A stretch of DNA of 63,683 bases, filler included. It is 11 parts of 11 records of this genome, joined end to end, with 100 filler letters (N's around TTAATTAATTAA, not from the genome) between each part and the next. Parts side by side here need not be neighbours in the genome. Positions count along the whole stretch, not along the records: positions 42,458 to 47,779 come from SRR31156797_149674; 10 more parts are not named here. One strand, 5' to 3'. Position 1 is the stretch's first letter. Every line of letters begins with the position of its first letter. The notes under the pieces are model-generated. The model was not told the DNA's origin. It did no database searches and saw only the letters and a program-made list of their open reading frames with translations. The position numbers and the translations under genes are program-made. This document shows, one piece after another, positions 5,204-47,779 of this stretch.

Positions 5204-6295
5204 ATGAAACTACGCATTATCCCCTGGATACCCCTTTTTTTCATTATGGCCGCCATTGCCCCGGCCCAGGCCGGCTATATCAGCCGGGTGACCGTTGACC
5301 CTGAAGGGGCAGACCCGGCCCGGGGCCAAACCGCGGCCATTTCCTGGGAGACCGGGGCTAAAGGCCTTGTGGACCTTTATATCTGCGACATGGACGGGGT
5401 GGTGGTCCGCCGCCTCATGGACCGCACCCGGTGCGGTGCCGGGAGCCACACCGCTCAATGGGACGGGACGGACGATGGGGGAGGGCTTCTGCCCAATGGG
5501 GCCTATTTCCCCTTTATCCGCATCATCACCCACCGCGGGAGTTTTGATGCATATGAACCTGTACAGGGCCGGTGGGGCGGCCGCCTGCCCGTAAAAGACC
5601 TGGCCTATGATCCAGACCTTAAAGAGATCACCTACACCCTTGAAAAACCGGCAATCTGCCTTGTCCGCATCGGGGAAAAGCAGGGAGGCCCCAGCTACGG
5701 CACCCTTTTGCACTGGGTGGCCCGCCCGGCCGGAGACCACAGGGAACCATGGAACGGAATGGATCTTCAAAACCTTTTTGAGGTGCATTCCCGGAAGAAT
5801 TTTAACATCATTTTTGATACCCTGGCCCTGCCGGCCAACGCCATTCTCCTGAGAGGCTCAACCGCTTCCCATACCCGGCCGGACCCCGCTGCCGAGCGCC
5901 TCTCCCTTCATCCCCCCACGGGCAGGGATATTTATATCCATTCCCTCCATCCCCGGTACCTCTGCCGGGACCCGGAGCTTAAGGTCACGGTCCTGGAAGG
6001 ACTTGAAACCGCAGCGGGGACGCTGCCCGGTACCAGGGGGCCCGTGATGCGCTTTGAAGTGACGGCCGTTGATCCGGACCAGGCCCAAAACATGGCCTTT
6101 GAGGGCTGCGAGGTCTATATCTTTGTGGACGGTGTTTTCCAGCAGGAGATAAAAACCCGGACCCTGCCGGCCGCCATCAGCCTTTCGGCAGCGGGAATAT
6201 CCCCCGGCCGACACATCCTGACCTTTAACCTTCGTTCCATAGAGGACCATGTGGGAAGCTTTTCCATGCAGATCGCCAAAGGAGGCGGCTTATGA
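5204..6295 (+). CDS. Secreted FlgD Ig-like domain protein
   Basis: Signal peptide (APAQA); G..VRRL......G.H...WDG.D..G..LPNG.Y FlgD-Ig motif, with a second degenerate copy (GDHREPWNGMD). Confidence 0.65.
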   Translation: MKLRIIPWIPLFFIMAAIAPAQAGYISRVTVDPEGADPARGQTAAISWETGAKGLVDLYICDMDGVVVRRLMDRTRCGAGSHTAQWDGTDDGGGLLPNGAYFPFIRIITHRGSFDAYEPVQGRWGGRLPVKDLAYDPDLKEITYTLEKPAICLVRIGEKQGGPSYGTLLHWVARPAGDHREPWNGMDLQNLFEVHSRKNFNIIFDTLALPANAILLRGSTASHTRPDPAAERLSLHPPTGRDIYIHSLHPRYLCRDPELKVTVLEGLETAAGTLPGTRGPVMRFEVTAVDPDQAQNMAFEGCEVYIFVDGVFQQEIKTRTLPAAISLSAAGISPGRHILTFNLRSIEDHVGSFSMQIAKGGGL

Positions 6296-42457: not shown

Positions 42458-42533
42458 ATCGGCGATCTCATGGCGCAGGCCTGCCTCGTAGCAAATCTGA
42501 AGATAGTCTAAAACGGCAGAAGTTAAAACAGCG

Positions 42534-42568
42534 GCACAGGGCTCCGATCGGAGTCCTGTGCTTTTTTT
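42534..42568 (+). terminator. Intrinsic terminator of an upstream truncated gene (ends 42511)
   Basis: GCACAGGGCTCC-GATC-GGAGTCCTGTGC followed by T7. Confidence 0.85.
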
Positions 42569-42626
42569 CGCTCCGCCGGAATACTGTGCCCGCCTCCCTG
42601 AATAAAAATTTTGGGGAGGTGTTTGT

Positions 42627-42764
42627 TTGGATAAAAAAATTATCTATGAGACTGAAAATGTGACCGTGGAAGTTGAGCGCGTTTTCACGGACGGGAAAAC
42701 AAAAAAGGAGCTGATTATTGAATTATTACGTAAAAGGTATGAAGCCGATGGTCTGCGTCTGTAA
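42627..42764 (+). CDS. 45-aa hypothetical protein upstream of recombinase (TnpW/RDF-like candidate)
   Basis: Not in the ORF track; strong GGAGGTG RBS, TTG start, MDKKIIYETENVTVEVERVFTDGKTKKELIIELLRKRYEADGLRL*. Confidence 0.6.
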   Translation: MDKKIIYETENVTVEVERVFTDGKTKKELIIELLRKRYEADGLRL

Positions 42765-42827
42765 CAGACTCCCGCAAAGGCCCTTGCAGAGAACCGAAGG
42801 TTATCGGGCTGAGGAGGGTGCAAATAC

Positions 42828-44435
42828 TTGAAAGCCAGGGTGAAGGACTATAAAGCGGCTCTTTATATGCGCTTGTCAAAGGACGACGGACTAAGTGAAA
42901 GCGCCAGTATCAGCACACAGCGGAAAATGCTGCGGACCTATGCCCGAGAAAACGGATATGACGTAATCAGCGAGTATGTGGACGACGGCTGGAGCGGCAC
43001 AAATTTTGAGCGTCCGGGCTGGAAACGGCTGCTGTGTGACATCGAAAGCAAAAAAGTCAATCTTGTCATTACGAAAGACCTGTCCCGTCTGGGCCGCGAT
43101 TACATAACAACCGGCCAGTATACGGAGATTTACTTTCCGTCAAAGGGCGTGCGTTATATTGCCGTTAACGACGGCTACGATTCCGACAGTCCCTACACCG
43201 ATATCGCCCCGTTTAAGAATGTCATAAACGAAATGTATGCCCGCGATACCTCAAAAAAAATCCGGAGCGCCTTCCGGACAAAAATGGAGGAGGGCGCTTT
43301 CATCGGTAATTTTGCGCCATACGGATATATCAAAGACCCGGCGGATAAAAACCATCTGCTGATAGACCCTGCCGCAGCACCCGTTGTTCAGGAGATATTC
43401 CGAATGGCTGAAGAGGGGGGCTCACCGTCGGAAATCGCACGGACCTTGAATGCTCATGGAATTATGACGCCGGCGATGTACCGTTGCTGTCGGCGGCCGT
43501 ATCTGAACATTGACGATTATTCCAGCCGTAAAGAGTGGACGTCGTCCATGATCTGTAAAATCCTGCGAAACATCGTTTATCTGGGACATGTCGCTCAGGG
43601 TAAAACAACAAAGGTCTCCTTTAAAAGCGGCCTCACGCTGCAAAATCCCCGGGAGGAATGGATCATAGCAAAAAACATGCACCAAGCGCTCATCACTCAG
43701 AATACTTTTGATAATGTAAGACGCCGGAGCGTATCGCGCCGCCAGCCGCCGAAAACAGATTTTACAAACATCTTTTCCGGAATCGCCAAATGCGCCGATT
43801 GCGGACGCAATATGTCAATAACGGGGAGCCGGAGAAAGGGCGGCGGTTACGACCTTGTCTGCGGCGGTTATAAGCAGTATGGCCGCGAAGAATGCGCCAA
43901 TCACGTTATCAGCTATGATGGGCTTTATGAAGTGGTGCTTTGCGAGATTAACACGCTCCTTGCGCTGACCCGGGAGGCTGGGGAGGAAATTATTGAAGCG
44001 TTTATAAATGAATCGGTGGAAAAGCCTGAAATGCCGGGCGTGGTGATGGCTCTGAATAAGCGGGCTGAGGAGCTTGACAGAGTTATTGAACGGCTATATG
44101 AGGATCATGCTGGCGGCAGGCTGGAGGAAGCGCGTTTTTATAAGCTGCTGGCTTCCTATGAAGCGGAGCAGAAGGATGTTTTGGCGCGGCTGTCTCTGAT
44201 CAAACCGTCTGCGCCGGAAGTGGAGAGCACACAACAAAAGCTTTACCGTGCGGTTTCATCCTTAATGCAGAATAATGCCGAGATAACGGAGCTGACGCCC
44301 GGCCTCCTGCACATGCTGATAGACCGGATTGAGGTCTGTCAGGGCAGCTTTGACCAAGGACAACGCAGTGGCCGCAAGCATCAAACCATTCGTATTTTCT
44401 ATAAATTTAACGAACAGCCGGAGAAGACCGGTTGA
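42828..44435 (+). CDS. Large serine recombinase (SpoIVCA/TndX/TnpX-like)
   Basis: Y.RLS catalytic Ser, DDGWSGT..RP, KDLSRLGR, PYGY recombinase domain, Zn ribbon CADCG...C...C, coiled coil, C-terminal IRIFYKF. Confidence 0.95.
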   Translation: MKARVKDYKAALYMRLSKDDGLSESASISTQRKMLRTYARENGYDVISEYVDDGWSGTNFERPGWKRLLCDIESKKVNLVITKDLSRLGRDYITTGQYTEIYFPSKGVRYIAVNDGYDSDSPYTDIAPFKNVINEMYARDTSKKIRSAFRTKMEEGAFIGNFAPYGYIKDPADKNHLLIDPAAAPVVQEIFRMAEEGGSPSEIARTLNAHGIMTPAMYRCCRRPYLNIDDYSSRKEWTSSMICKILRNIVYLGHVAQGKTTKVSFKSGLTLQNPREEWIIAKNMHQALITQNTFDNVRRRSVSRRQPPKTDFTNIFSGIAKCADCGRNMSITGSRRKGGGYDLVCGGYKQYGREECANHVISYDGLYEVVLCEINTLLALTREAGEEIIEAFINESVEKPEMPGVVMALNKRAEELDRVIERLYEDHAGGRLEEARFYKLLASYEAEQKDVLARLSLIKPSAPEVESTQQKLYRAVSSLMQNNAEITELTPGLLHMLIDRIEVCQGSFDQGQRSGRKHQTIRIFYKFNEQPEKTG

Positions 44436-44472
44436 GCTGATGCATAAATTTCCTCTGTCATGTGCATGGGCT
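44436..44472. mobile_element. Putative attachment junction (att) between the recombinase-bearing element and split feoB
   Basis: FeoB homology starts abruptly at ATGTGC (44460), 24 nt after the recombinase stop, with no RBS; imperfect inverted arms AGCTGATGCATA / TGTGCATGGGCT. Confidence 0.5.
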
Positions 44473-45311
44473 TCGGCTGCAACGCCGCCGGTGTCATCGG
44501 CTGCCGTATTATTGACTCCCCGCGTGAGCGGCTTGTCGCGACGATCACTAATAATTTCGTGCCGTGCAACGGCCGGTTTCCGACGCTTATCGCCGTCATC
44601 ACGATGTTTTTCGCCGGTGCTGTCGGCGGCGCGTTTAAGTCCGTCGTCTCTACCGTGACGCTGACGGCTGTGATTGTGCTGGGCGTTGTGATGACGGTGT
44701 TTATCTCAAAGCTCTTATCAAAAACCATTCTAAAAGGAATGCCGTCGTCGTTTAATCTGGAACTGCCGCCGTACAGGCGGCCTCAGATTGGAAAAGTGAT
44801 CGTCCGCTCTGTCTTGGACAGGACGCTGTTCGTCCTTGGCCGGGCTGCCGTTGTCGCCGCGCCGGCCGGAATCATTATATGGACTATGGCAAATATCTCC
44901 GTGGACGGCGTGAGTCTTCTGGCGCATTGCGCAGGCTTTTTGGATCCGTTTGCACGGCTGATGGGCCTGGACGGGTTTATATTGATGGCTTTTATTCTCG
45001 GCTTTCCAGCCAATGAAATTGTTGTGCCAATTATCATCATGAGCTATATGGCAACGGGGTCATTAACCGAGCTCGGTAGTCTGGCGGACCTTCACGCGCT
45101 GTTTCTGAGTCACGGCTGGACTTGGCTGACGGCCATCTGCGTCATGCTGTTTTCCCTGATGCACTGGCCGTGCGGTACAACGTGTCTGACAATCCGGAAG
45201 GAAACCCAGAGTCTTAAGTGGACGGCCGTATCCTTTATTATTCCAACTGTTACAGGTGTTATTATTTGCATTGCCGTTGCCGGTGCAGCGCGCCTTTTAG
45301 GTCTCGTTTAG
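44460..45311 (+). pseudogene. feoB: 3' portion of ferrous iron transporter FeoB (gate + C-terminal domains); N-terminal GTPase half absent
   Basis: MGFGCNAAG...RII.SPRER, PCNGRFP, LELPPYR.P, GFPANEIV, HWPC.TT; 283 aa versus roughly 600-750 aa for full FeoB. Confidence 0.8.
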
Positions 45312-45346
45312 GCGCTGCCTGCTCAGCGGATATCCCGTATAAAGTA

Positions 45347-45385
45347 ACGCCCGGAGACGGAGCCGATGAGGCTCTCTCCGGGCGT
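45347..45385. terminator. Hairpin between the convergent feoB fragment and response regulator
   Basis: ACGCCCGGAGA...TCTCCGGGCGT stem. Confidence 0.5.
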
Positions 45386-45465
45386 GAGACTGTCTGTAAG
45401 GTCTATTTCAGTAAGGTGTCGTAATAAGGCAAAAAAAAGCCGCTGCCTGGCGTTAGCGGAGGAGG

Positions 45466-45846
45466 TTATCCGGTTATATTGTTTAACATGGATATCACTT
45501 TTTTAATACTGAACGGCTTGCTGATGCAGGTGACGGCACCCATTTCAAATGCTTTTTGAACCAGCTCATTGTTTGGGCTGACGCCTGTCATGATGATAAA
45601 CAGGGGCTTTTTATCAATCGGTATGGATTGGATATTTTCCATTACATTAATACCGTTAGCTTTCGGCATTCTTATATCGAGCAATACGATGTCAGGCTGC
45701 TTCGATACGATCATGTCGATGGCCGCAATACCGTCATAAGCGATGCCGACCAGCTCAAAGCTGAGATTTTTCTCTACCGCGAGATATTCGCAAAACAGAA
45801 AAGACATGTCCTTATTATCGTCAACAAGAATAACCGTCTTTGCCAT
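45466..45846 (-). CDS. Stand-alone response regulator receiver (Spo0A-receiver-like)
   Basis: LVDDN, GIAYDG, PDIVLLDIRMP..NG, KPF; no output domain. Confidence 0.85.
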   Translation of the reverse strand: MAKTVILVDDNKDMSFLFCEYLAVEKNLSFELVGIAYDGIAAIDMIVSKQPDIVLLDIRMPKANGINVMENIQSIPIDKKPLFIIMTGVSPNNELVQKAFEMGAVTCISKPFSIKKVISMLNNITG

Positions 45847-46018
45847 TTTTCCTCCCCCCGAAAAGCATCAAGTGTTTTCAAATTCAATCTTACAGAATAT
45901 TGTGTTAAATTACAATACTTTTTTTCATTAATACAATATATTGTTGCTGTAAGTAAACGCTGCTTAAATGAGGAGGCTTTTTAATGCAAGAAATTACTTA
46001 ATATTATTATAGCCGGCC

Positions 46019-47272
46019 TTAAAGCGGTGCGGTCTCTTCAAAATACCGCGTAAATAACGTTTCATCCAGAAGGCTCTCGATGGTTTCAATACCCAGCTTA
46101 TTTAATATTTCAAGAACATAGGGATTGTCAAGCGGGGTGTCGAAAGTGGACGTTTCGGCATAGTGTTCGAGGTTCTGCTTGCCGGCGGAACGGTCGATCA
46201 GCACCTTGGGTCCGCCGATGCAGCCGCCCTCGCAGCCCATCCCTTCCAGATAATTGGCCGTAATGTTATTTTCACGAAGCTGCTCTAAAAGCTCGCGGCA
46301 GCTTTTTGTCCCGTCGGCCTGCTGGGCAGAAACATTGACGAGGCGGTTGGGATTGAGCCGGTGGACGGTGTGTTCGACGGCCTCGCTGACGCCGCCGGTA
46401 CGTCCATAGATGCGCCCGGCTCTGGAAGAATGCTCCTTGCCATCCTCTGGCTCCTGAGACGGATTAATGTGAAACGCGTCAAAAATATCCCGGATCTCTT
46501 CAAAGGTGAGGACAAAATCAACGCCGTCCGCGATATCCACGTCGCGTGCTTCGGCTTTTTTGGCGATGCACGGCCCGATAAAAACCGTTATGGCCGACGG
46601 CGTCATTTTCTTAACGGCGCGGCCGCAGGCGATCATGGGCGAGACGGCGTCCGGAATATTTTTAAGATACTGCTTGTAGCTGCGGCGTATCATGGAAATC
46701 CAAACCGGGCAACAGCAGCTTGCCAGCATGAAATCCTCGCGGCTTTTTATTTTTTTATTGAAAACAAGAGCCTCTTTCAGCGTCAGGATATCGGCAAAAA
46801 GCGCAACCTCAACCATACCGGCAAATCCGAGGGATTTAAAGGCACTGCGAAGCTGACCCGGTGAAATCTCGCCGAACTGCCCGATAAAGGCCGGCGCGAC
46901 GAGCGCATACACAGGCGCGCCGGTGCTTTTCAGGGCGTCGAGTACCGGCAGGATATCCCGGCTTTCCGTGAGCTTCCCCGAGCTGCAGGCCTCAATACAT
47001 TCTCCGCAGCCGACACAGCGGTCCTTATCAATCCGGAGCTTGCCCTCGTCGTCCCGGCGTATGGCACTGAAGATACAGCGCCTGACGCATTCGGCGTCGC
47101 CCGCCGGGCAGTCGCAGGGTGACGTTGCCCAAACGGGTGCGTACCGCTCCGGGTTTAAAAGGCACGCTATGCCGTCACCTTCGCTATGCTTGCGGTATGC
47201 CTCAATGTAATCGTCCTGCTTTTTATCGGCAGCCGCCTGCAGTAGTCCTGTATATAAATCAGAAAAGTTCAT
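46019..47272 (-). CDS. [FeFe]-hydrogenase large subunit-like protein with 4Fe-4S ferredoxin domain
   Basis: CVGCGECIEAC; H-cluster-like motifs ASCCCPVW, GPCIAKKAE, EGMGCEGGCIGG. Confidence 0.8.
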   Translation of the reverse strand: MNFSDLYTGLLQAAADKKQDDYIEAYRKHSEGDGIACLLNPERYAPVWATSPCDCPAGDAECVRRCIFSAIRRDDEGKLRIDKDRCVGCGECIEACSSGKLTESRDILPVLDALKSTGAPVYALVAPAFIGQFGEISPGQLRSAFKSLGFAGMVEVALFADILTLKEALVFNKKIKSREDFMLASCCCPVWISMIRRSYKQYLKNIPDAVSPMIACGRAVKKMTPSAITVFIGPCIAKKAEARDVDIADGVDFVLTFEEIRDIFDAFHINPSQEPEDGKEHSSRAGRIYGRTGGVSEAVEHTVHRLNPNRLVNVSAQQADGTKSCRELLEQLRENNITANYLEGMGCEGGCIGGPKVLIDRSAGKQNLEHYAETSTFDTPLDNPYVLEILNKLGIETIESLLDETLFTRYFEETAPL

Positions 47273-47407
47273 GATGTGGCCCGCCTTCGTTCATTATTTA
47301 GTCTCATTGTAACCATTGACCGTAAAATAATGCCTGCGTTATTTTGTGTGCTGCAGAAACTTATGAGCAGATCAAAACTGGCTACAGATGCGCACAGCAA
47401 CCCAAAC

Positions 47408-47442
47408 AAAAAGCCCCGTGCCGAGAACGGCCGGGACTTTTT
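47408..47442 (-). terminator. Probable terminator after DUF2325 gene (bidirectional-type)
   Basis: AAAAAGCCCCG...CGGGACTTTTT. Confidence 0.55.
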
Positions 47443-47500
47443 GCGTGAGGCTGCTTGTATTGGAATCGAGCGCGGCAGACCGATGGCCTCTGAATCCGTA

Positions 47501-47779
47501 TCAAATGCGGCTATCACAGCGGGCCTGATTGCCGTGACTTCTCAAAATGGCTTTCAGCGAAGACAGACTGCTGCTGTGGCATCGCTCAATACAGGCGCTG
47601 CATTTTTTGGCCTGACACAGCGCGCACTGCACCATCTTGTGGGATACCGTACTGGTAAACAGTATATATAAGTCGGCGCTTCCAAGCTTCTTTTTAACAT
47701 CGCCGCTTATTTTTGTAATAACCTTTGCCTTGCAGCCGTGCTCCCGGCACGTGTCCGCATAAAGGCGCTCCATGCGTTC
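47501..47779 (-). CDS. DUF2325 family protein (5' truncated)
   Basis: DL.ILFTSTVSHKM...A....CHSSS pattern. Confidence 0.75.
   Translation of the reverse strand, partial: ERMERLYADTCREHGCKAKVITKISGDVKKKLGSADLYILFTSTVSHKMVQCALCQAKKCSACIERCHSSSLSSLKAILRSHGNQARCDSRI

Follow-up and report, generated by a model that had tools for sequence, protein, structure and literature searches.

How does a gene for a ferrous iron transporter come to begin in the middle of its protein, directly behind a recombinase gene? The question is raised by one contig of the window, the 63,683-base stretch of DNA analysed here, in which the 3' part of feoB follows the gene of a large serine recombinase (LSR). A preliminary description of this DNA had proposed that an LSR-bearing element interrupts feoB and that, in the manner of the skin element, it excises under developmental or iron control to restore the gene. 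The first part of that proposal is borne out by the LSR domains, a 283-codon FeoB 3' frame and 86 loci with the same break. The window most probably holds the right-hand junction (attR) of a site-specific integrative element that uses feoB as its target site (attB) and encodes a TndX/TnpX-like LSR.

The window consists of 11 contigs of 5-7.8 kb (G+C content 0.50-0.61) separated by N44-TTAATTAATTAA-N44 spacers, which span window positions 7777-58448. The contigs look unrelated, so that gene neighbourhood across any spacer is meaningless. The contig under study occupies positions 42458-47779 (5,322 bases, G+C 0.51).

The feoB junction in the window

The feoB 3' part lies at 44460-45311 on the plus strand as an intact frame of 283 codons covering residues 434-716, as identified by Pfam, alignment to FeoB relatives and tblastn. 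It is 94% identical to the same residues of its best relative, a 716-amino-acid FeoB (P0001), from which it differs by conservative changes only and no frameshift. A full FeoB has the FeoB_N G-domain, Gate, FeoB_C and Gate in one protein, and intact relatives hold all of these; the window frame contains FeoB_C and Gate only. The best full-length relatives (about 716-717 amino acids) read ...ACAHGKQALT-MCMGFGCNAAG... in one open reading frame; the window reads stop-ISSV-MCMGFGCNAAG, with an in-frame stop-I-S-S-V directly before the Met at 44460. The gap between the LSR stop and the feoB ATG at 44460 is 24 nucleotides (nt) long and contains no purine-rich stretch that could serve as a Shine-Dalgarno sequence. 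Alignment to P0001 thus agrees with the earlier account of a feoB that starts mid-protein 24 nt past the LSR stop, has no ribosome-binding site and is intact to its stop.

The same account had noted that the 5' half is absent. This is true of the window, where tblastn with full-length FeoB found residues 434-716 and nothing else, but the contig begins only 370 nt 5' of the LSR gene. The feoB 5' half and the cargo are missing from the window because of this contig edge, and the missing half is therefore uninformative about the genome. The junction itself is reproduced in a Logan contig of 2,320 bases from sequencing run X1, which spans it with 0 differences (run X1 is the best match among the runs, with 0.86 of sampled words, and probably the source; contigs, not reads, were compared in runs X1-X3, and no RNA run was among those listed).

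The recombinase gene (42828-44435, plus strand) encodes 535 amino acids. It has a TTG start with GAGGAGG 9 nt 5' of it, and ends with TGA at 44433-44435. Pfam matches were obtained to Resolvase (9.7e-23; 143 of 145 model positions), Recombinase (2.8e-21; 98 of 102), Zn_ribbon_recom (3.3e-12; 56 of 58) and DUF4368 (6.9e-9). A catalytic Resolvase domain followed by Recombinase and zinc ribbon domains is the layout of a serine integrase, and the motifs YMRLSKDD and SRLGR are visible; the former, at the N-terminus, is common to relatives of the protein. Annotated TndX is the best named match, with 39.6% identity over 97% of the length, and this kinship together with the DUF4368 tail places the protein in the TndX/TnpX-like (DUF4368) subgroup.

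A shared target and a proposed crossover site

Relatives of the LSR were sought in one genome per prokaryote species, which gave 43 loci (46-72% identity over the best matching stretch), and in metagenome contigs, which gave 68 further loci (36-78% over the best matching stretch); 94 of the total of 111 loci could be judged. feoB is broken at the same codon beside an LSR relative in 86 of the 94, a count in which loci are not independent, about 25 metagenome loci being one element in one species group. Among genomes, 37 of the 43 loci have a feoB piece at most 360 nt from the recombinase gene; five of the remaining six stop at a contig edge (L005, L016, L034, L042, L043), and L010 has a junction of attP type. 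Among metagenome loci, 48 of the 68 adjoin feoB, as does L109, with a fragmented recombinase, while 12 were not judgeable and seven have no adjacent feoB. When integrated copies alone are counted, 86 of 88 occupy the one feoB codon; the exceptions are L053, integrated into a different target, and L101 (36% identity), with no adjacent feoB. Every feoB 3' piece starts at Met434, Cys435 or Met436 in P0001 numbering.

The recombinases that share this target are diverse. Clustering of the 94 near-full-length sequences gives 43 groups at 90% identity and 30 at 70%, the window LSR being alone in its group at the lower threshold. The metagenome scan yielded no relative nearer than about 60-78% over partial matches, so relatives do not reveal the cargo of the window element itself. 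The 85 loci that could be classified fall into three arrangements. In the arrangement of the window, seen in 27 genome and 44 metagenome loci, the recombinase gene ends against the feoB 3' piece; in 8 and 3 loci it ends against the feoB 5' piece, with feoB on the opposite strand; and in 2 and 1 loci the recombinase gene starts after the feoB 5' piece. At L053, near position 6290, an element with the arm type and 70% cluster of L051 is joined to coding sequence other than feoB and so occupies a secondary or off-target site.

The position of strand exchange was approached by comparing the two ends of complete elements. Both junctions are held by 26 loci, from which 24 distinct complete pairs were compared. 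The 5' junction (attL) reads ...ACC ATG TG and then element, and the 3' junction reads element and then ATG TGC ATG GG.... The cores shared by attL and attR are CATG, CCATG, ATGTG or longer; in L026 the scripted anchor gave no shared stretch, and TGT was found by eye. The TG of the Met434 codon is the only dinucleotide common to attL and attR in all printed pairs, and the arms of L008, L041 and the L018 group are, by eye, mirror-symmetric about it. For these two reasons the crossover is placed at 44461-44462, positions 2-3 of the Met434 codon, which narrows the ATGTG core (44460-44464) suggested previously. The element-derived arm (P arm) of attR then occupies 44436-44460, as delimited by junction alignment with L008 and L027 and by loose contig ends at 44459/44460, and the A at 44460 of the ATG is supplied by the element. 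The window arm is like those of L008 and L027 and unlike the commoner arm type. The incomplete right-hand end of the integrated element accordingly spans 42458-44462 (plus strand), as delimited by the contig limits, the alignment of the element/host junction and the loose ends of runs X2 and X3; the contig begins within the element, with cargo and attL outside the window.

Deletion between the two TGs restores the feoB reading frame in 24 of 24 distinct complete elements, as had been predicted. The missing half was also correctly expected to end in ...GKQALT, given the reading ...GKQALT-MCMGFGCN of full-length relatives and the agreement of the relatives' 5' junctions.

In the mechanism proposed here, the LSR would recognise a conserved stretch of feoB, codons T433-M434-C435-M436-G437 at the GFGCN motif, and exchange strands at the TG of the Met434 codon, so cutting feoB in two. 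The recombinase gene would come to lie at the end of the element, reading outward, and the feoB 3' piece, having no ribosome-binding site, would most likely be silent. Excision would restore feoB. The window copy may still be active, its recombinase alone may integrate and excise, as reported for TnpX and TndX, and any excision would then be a by-product of mobility rather than a regulated switch.

The crossover of TnpX and TndX is GA, and the feoB family differs from them in its TG as well as in the placement of its recombinase gene at the element end, reading outward. TndX (Tn5397) and TnpX (Tn4451/Tn4453), large 'resolvases' from conjugative or mobilisable transposons of clostridia, are like the window LSR in their four-domain layout with a DUF4368 tail, and some relatives of the window element resemble Tn4451 in carrying a relaxase or MobC. 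A review of integrative mobilizable elements (IMEs) describes serine-recombinase IMEs as integrating inside, and disrupting, genes dispensable to the host, and the Tn4451 recombinase (TnpX, written TndX in that passage) as integrating and excising without a directionality factor (PMC5704250). Titles in its reference list report TnpX and TndX to be sufficient for both reactions. The same review gives low insertion specificity for the Tn4451 family (PMC5704250), and in the main text of a survey of LSRs DUF4368 marks a multi-targeting clade (Durrant et al., 2022). The feoB family is, in contrast, site-specific in 86 of its 88 integrated copies. It is closer in this respect to the conserved-gene targets of that survey, which in its main text include a Mg-chelatase/ATP-dependent protease and a prolyl isomerase, since here too many diverged LSR clusters converge on one site in a coding sequence (Durrant et al., 2022). 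Serine-recombinase IMEs of streptococci (e.g., in rumA) differ in recombinase lineage, in host class, which is Clostridia here, and in target.

The landing site (the T-M-C-M-G codons of feoB) is strikingly conserved and apparently undescribed. Full-text literature searches returned nothing relevant on feoB with serine recombinases, attachment sites, mobilizable integration or recombinase interruption; feoB is unmentioned in the IME review (PMC5704250), and neither 'feoB' nor 'ferrous' occurs in the main text of Durrant et al. (2022), whose supplementary tables may list target clusters.

Mobility, constraint and competing explanations

Related feoB islands were found in many gut and sediment Clostridia, and pairs of loci indicate that they move between them. 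Between L011 and L038 the element is 90-97% identical over most of its length, and the feoB pieces and flanks are 59-81% identical, with synonymous divergence (dS) of 0.94-1.27 in feoB. L020 and L029 are 97.5% identical in the recombinase, 99.1% in the upstream cargo and 72.2% in the feoB 3' piece. Elements so much more alike than their host feoB genes imply horizontal spread and entry into the same site in different species. The recombinases of L003 and L007 are 76% alike in hosts that are 89-90% alike, which points to element turnover.

Empty sites and possible unintegrated forms were also encountered. Junctions of attP type, palindromic, with two arms inverted around the core and no feoB, occur in L010 (about position 2110), L044 (about 4780), L051 (about 3470) and, just 3' of the recombinase, in L085, L087 and L097. 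An excised circle or a tandem copy would be expected to look like this; when the DNA beyond these junctions was compared by blast with integrated copies, nothing informative matched. In X2 and X3, two runs of a different study, contigs of relatives 90-99% alike leave the window sequence at 44459/44460 and continue into the end of the feoB 5' half, so that feoB is uninterrupted there. Run X2 also has a 92%-alike contig that bridges recombinase and feoB. One sample thus contains the site in both states, empty and occupied, which contigs cannot assign to the same strain. A further joint in run X2, which skips 493, was ignored as its shorter side has only 21 letters.

Occupancy was estimated in an even set of 301 genomes from the order of genome G001, 141 of which have this FeoB type at E <= 1e-100. 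The gene is split at this site in 5 of 140 non-seed genomes (G223, G162, G053, G104, G233). An LSR relative (41-58% identity) adjoins the junction in four of the five; for G223 none was found in the 2.6 kb fetched 5' of the 3' half. In 5 of 5 host genomes the two feoB halves share a contig, with 5.4-18.4 kb between them. Each of the five has, in addition, 1-3 full-length matches to feoB (31-33% identity) that are whole or in two pieces; one contains an internal stop. Judging from these five related hosts, loss of this feoB copy is probably tolerated through distant paralogues.

Complete elements range from about 3.0 kb (L031, L089) to 11 kb within fetched loci, and in whole genomes from 13-18 kb (G002, G003, G005) to about 34 kb (G223). 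Pfam scans of 12 elements revealed no common cargo beyond the recombinase. IME features were recognised in L011 (NikA/MobC), L037 (NikA and a MobA relaxase, beside ResIII, a methylase and a TIR protein) and L032 (a TrwB/TraG coupling protein, with a tyrosine integrase); the window's own cargo is off the contig. Other cargo comprises a corrinoid methyltransferase set (L023), xylose-isomerase-like, FGGY kinase and DAP dehydrogenase genes (L030), sugar transferases and an epimerase (L026, L041), one 1,506-amino-acid fn3/MBG surface protein (L008), and Fic and Bro-N proteins (L018). Such cargo is that of small integrative, partly mobilisable islands, unlike a conserved resident such as skin.

The interrupted feoB genes show little sign of decay. 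The 3' piece is open for at least 265 codons in 62 of 74 cases; four of the other 12 run off the contig, seven contain a second insertion and one (L075) is truncated. All 38 of the 38 5' pieces are open. Pairwise ratios of nonsynonymous to synonymous substitution (dN/dS) for interrupted 3' pieces are 0.03-0.15, and in the L018-like group of 25 loci the median is 0.096 for the 3' pieces vs 0.208 for the recombinase; these ratios come from insertions that cannot be dated, from non-independent pairs and from loci picked for having a recombinase. The comparison of dN/dS suggested in the preliminary description does find low ratios in the 3' pieces, but open frames and low ratios mean that no decay is detectable and are not proof of a switch.

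Some details of individual loci may be recorded here. At the 5' junctions of L011 and L038 the open frame of the feoB 5' half runs on for 245 codons into the element, which may yield a FeoB-N fusion protein or be chance. The 5' halves of L014, L024, L037 and L061-L070 belong to a shorter FeoB that lacks, between G-domain and membrane part, roughly what are residues 200-300 in P0001; with its frames open, this looks like a natural variant and not decay. In L044, L045 and L048 a second arm-like copy lies inverted about 40-60 nt 5' of the junction, forming a long hairpin after the recombinase stop that may be a terminator or a scar of earlier recombination.

Several observations weigh against a mobile integrative element as the explanation of the window. 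One junction of this copy is seen, the left end, cargo and 5' half lying outside. In the pairs L017/L026 and L018/L024 the divergence of the element is about that of the host, which, with an open and constrained feoB, fits long residence and a still-useful gene. Circular closure by terminal overlap was found in 0 of 17 whole-contig loci, including four of the six with attP-type junctions. For run X1 the loose ends listed (20 more are unlisted), in contigs only, include no excised or rejoined form. The complete relatives L008, L026, L030 and L041 have no recognised mobilisation gene, so 'mobilisable' does not hold in general.

Part of this evidence would suit a resident element comparable to skin or SPbeta, or to 'active lysogeny', that leaves the gene in response to a signal (e.g., sporulation or iron limitation) while selection keeps both feoB halves. 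Sporulation genes are what skin (SpoIVCA, in sigK) and SPbeta (SprA, in spsM) interrupt; these elements are for the most part prophage remnants passed on vertically, and their excision takes place in the mother cell and is controlled by sporulation. The feoB elements are like them in that an LSR-bearing insert splits a gene which exact excision would rebuild. They are unlike them in targeting an iron transporter, in having no conserved sporulation context, in their variable cargo and horizontal spread, and in a site that is empty in most species; gene splitting is the one defining feature of the skin type that they possess. feoB is not known as a gene of the mother cell or of terminal cells. 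The nearly always open halves and their low dN/dS, which speak for a switch, may predate insertion or reflect gene flow out of empty alleles, and were seen in loci selected for having a recombinase. The matching divergence of elements and hosts in L017/L026 and L018/L024 has to be set against the clear transfer of L011/L038 and L020/L029 and the turnover in L003/L007, and the possibility of frame-exact restoration and the presence of occupied and empty sites together in run X2 against non-conserved cargo with transfer functions, occupancy of about 4% of sampled species and the lack of a conserved regulator, Rfam element or promoter match near the recombinase. A signal-driven switch is distinctly unlikely on this balance, and the developmental or iron-regulated form of it in the preliminary description is unsupported, given variable cargo, horizontal spread, occupancy of 5 in 140, attP-type junctions and paralogues. 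It is rather unlikely, too, that the elements are reversible on/off switches of one Fe2+ transporter that excise and re-enter at a measurable rate without a directionality factor, giving iron uptake that is heterogeneous within the population. That idea, if true, would explain purifying selection on both feoB halves in L017/L026 and the L018-like group, where elements have diverged in step with their hosts.

A dead-end insertion, in which the element can no longer leave and this feoB copy, dispensable because of paralogues, has recently become a pseudogene, would agree with the 3' piece without a ribosome-binding site, the distant paralogues in related hosts, the truncated 3' piece of L075 and the lack of a rejoined form among the listed X1 loose ends. 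It is highly unlikely in view of a complete recombinase frame with all four domains, a feoB 3' piece only conservatively changed from P0001 with no frameshift, and attP-type junctions among relatives. That the junction is an artefact of chimeric assembly, or a normal two-gene feoB, is barely credible. The contig is short, the assembly is fragmented and Logan contigs branch 5' of the recombinase; the same junction nevertheless recurs in 86 loci of many separate assemblies, and a Logan contig bridges it without a difference. As to a natural split, 116 of the 120 best relatives listed are single proteins of 705-734 amino acids (in a search limited to proteins of at least 497 amino acids), and the halves, where both are seen, are always separated by a recombinase-bearing insert. 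Both the two-gene feoB and the chimera were rejected on the recurrent junction, the bridging contig and the single-protein relatives. The element works as a site-specific serine-recombinase integrative element, a relative of TndX/TnpX by sequence and not by target behaviour.

Neighbouring sequences, further insertions and implications

The short stretch upstream of the LSR gene does not match the terminator-bounded genes described there before, as only one terminator-like hairpin and a 45-amino-acid reading frame are found on the contig. The hairpin (42533-42562, plus strand, from a hairpin scan) has a 13-bp stem followed by a T run and, being terminator-like, may close a cargo gene upstream of it. 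The reading frame (42627-42764, plus strand), directly 5' of the LSR, has a TTG start with GGGGAGG 8 nt before it and matched no Pfam family. It is kept at the same position, with 53% identity, in the two loci with a window-like element arm, L008 and L027, and is possibly an accessory factor. A 12-bp hairpin at 42591-42621 pairs its GGGGAGG ribosome-binding site with an upstream CCTCCC; it was flagged by the scan as terminator-like, and could alternatively mask the start of a small operon of this frame and the recombinase. Rfam gave 0 matches on the contig, and the only sigma-70-like site found is on the wrong strand within the 45-amino-acid frame.

Downstream of feoB, Pfam identified three genes on the minus strand, a receiver-only response regulator (45466-45846), an [FeFe]-hydrogenase-like Fe-S protein (46019-47272) and a DUF2325 protein (47501-47773). 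All are host flank outside the element. They had been taken as context favouring a switch, with a Spo0A-like receiver among them; the receiver is a bare 126-amino-acid Response_reg domain and not Spo0A-like, and none of the three is syntenic with feoB in any related locus.

feoB is also entered elsewhere. A second insertion site lies about 40 codons downstream, after ...PCNGRF (residue about 473), and is used by another serine recombinase with Resolvase and Recombinase domains and about 23% identity to the window LSR (in G153). Insertions there were seen at L031 (3766-7812), L089 (11777-15823) and L045 (11801 onward), in L009, L028, L048 and L056, and in genomes G153, G198 and G030; 7 of 74 loci have both insertions. 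Their cargo includes YfhO or a set of FtsK, Rep, HTH, MmeI and HEPN. In genome G010 (C9:34029-36979, L119) a feoB match begins at about residue 391 with a distant LSR (23.5% identity) just upstream, on a contig that ends soon after; this may be a third landing site.

These results name a conserved landing site, the T-M-C-M-G codons of the FeoB GFGCN motif with its TG crossover, for a diverse LSR family, and show that feoB also draws one or more other serine-recombinase families about 40 codons downstream. In annotation, a 'truncated feoB' or 'nucleoside recognition domain protein' beside a recombinase can be read as an insertion junction. The family apparently departs from the association of DUF4368 with multi-targeting that has been reported, and offers tool builders many recombinases with one common attB and differing element arms. 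If the reversible on/off switching considered above were true, an LSR gene switch would be widespread beyond sporulation and heterocysts, and a DUF4368 clade would have a single attB in common and several different types of attP, a useful integrase set. For the physiology of the hosts, the finding makes a case for asking whether the interrupted transporter is lost or toggled.

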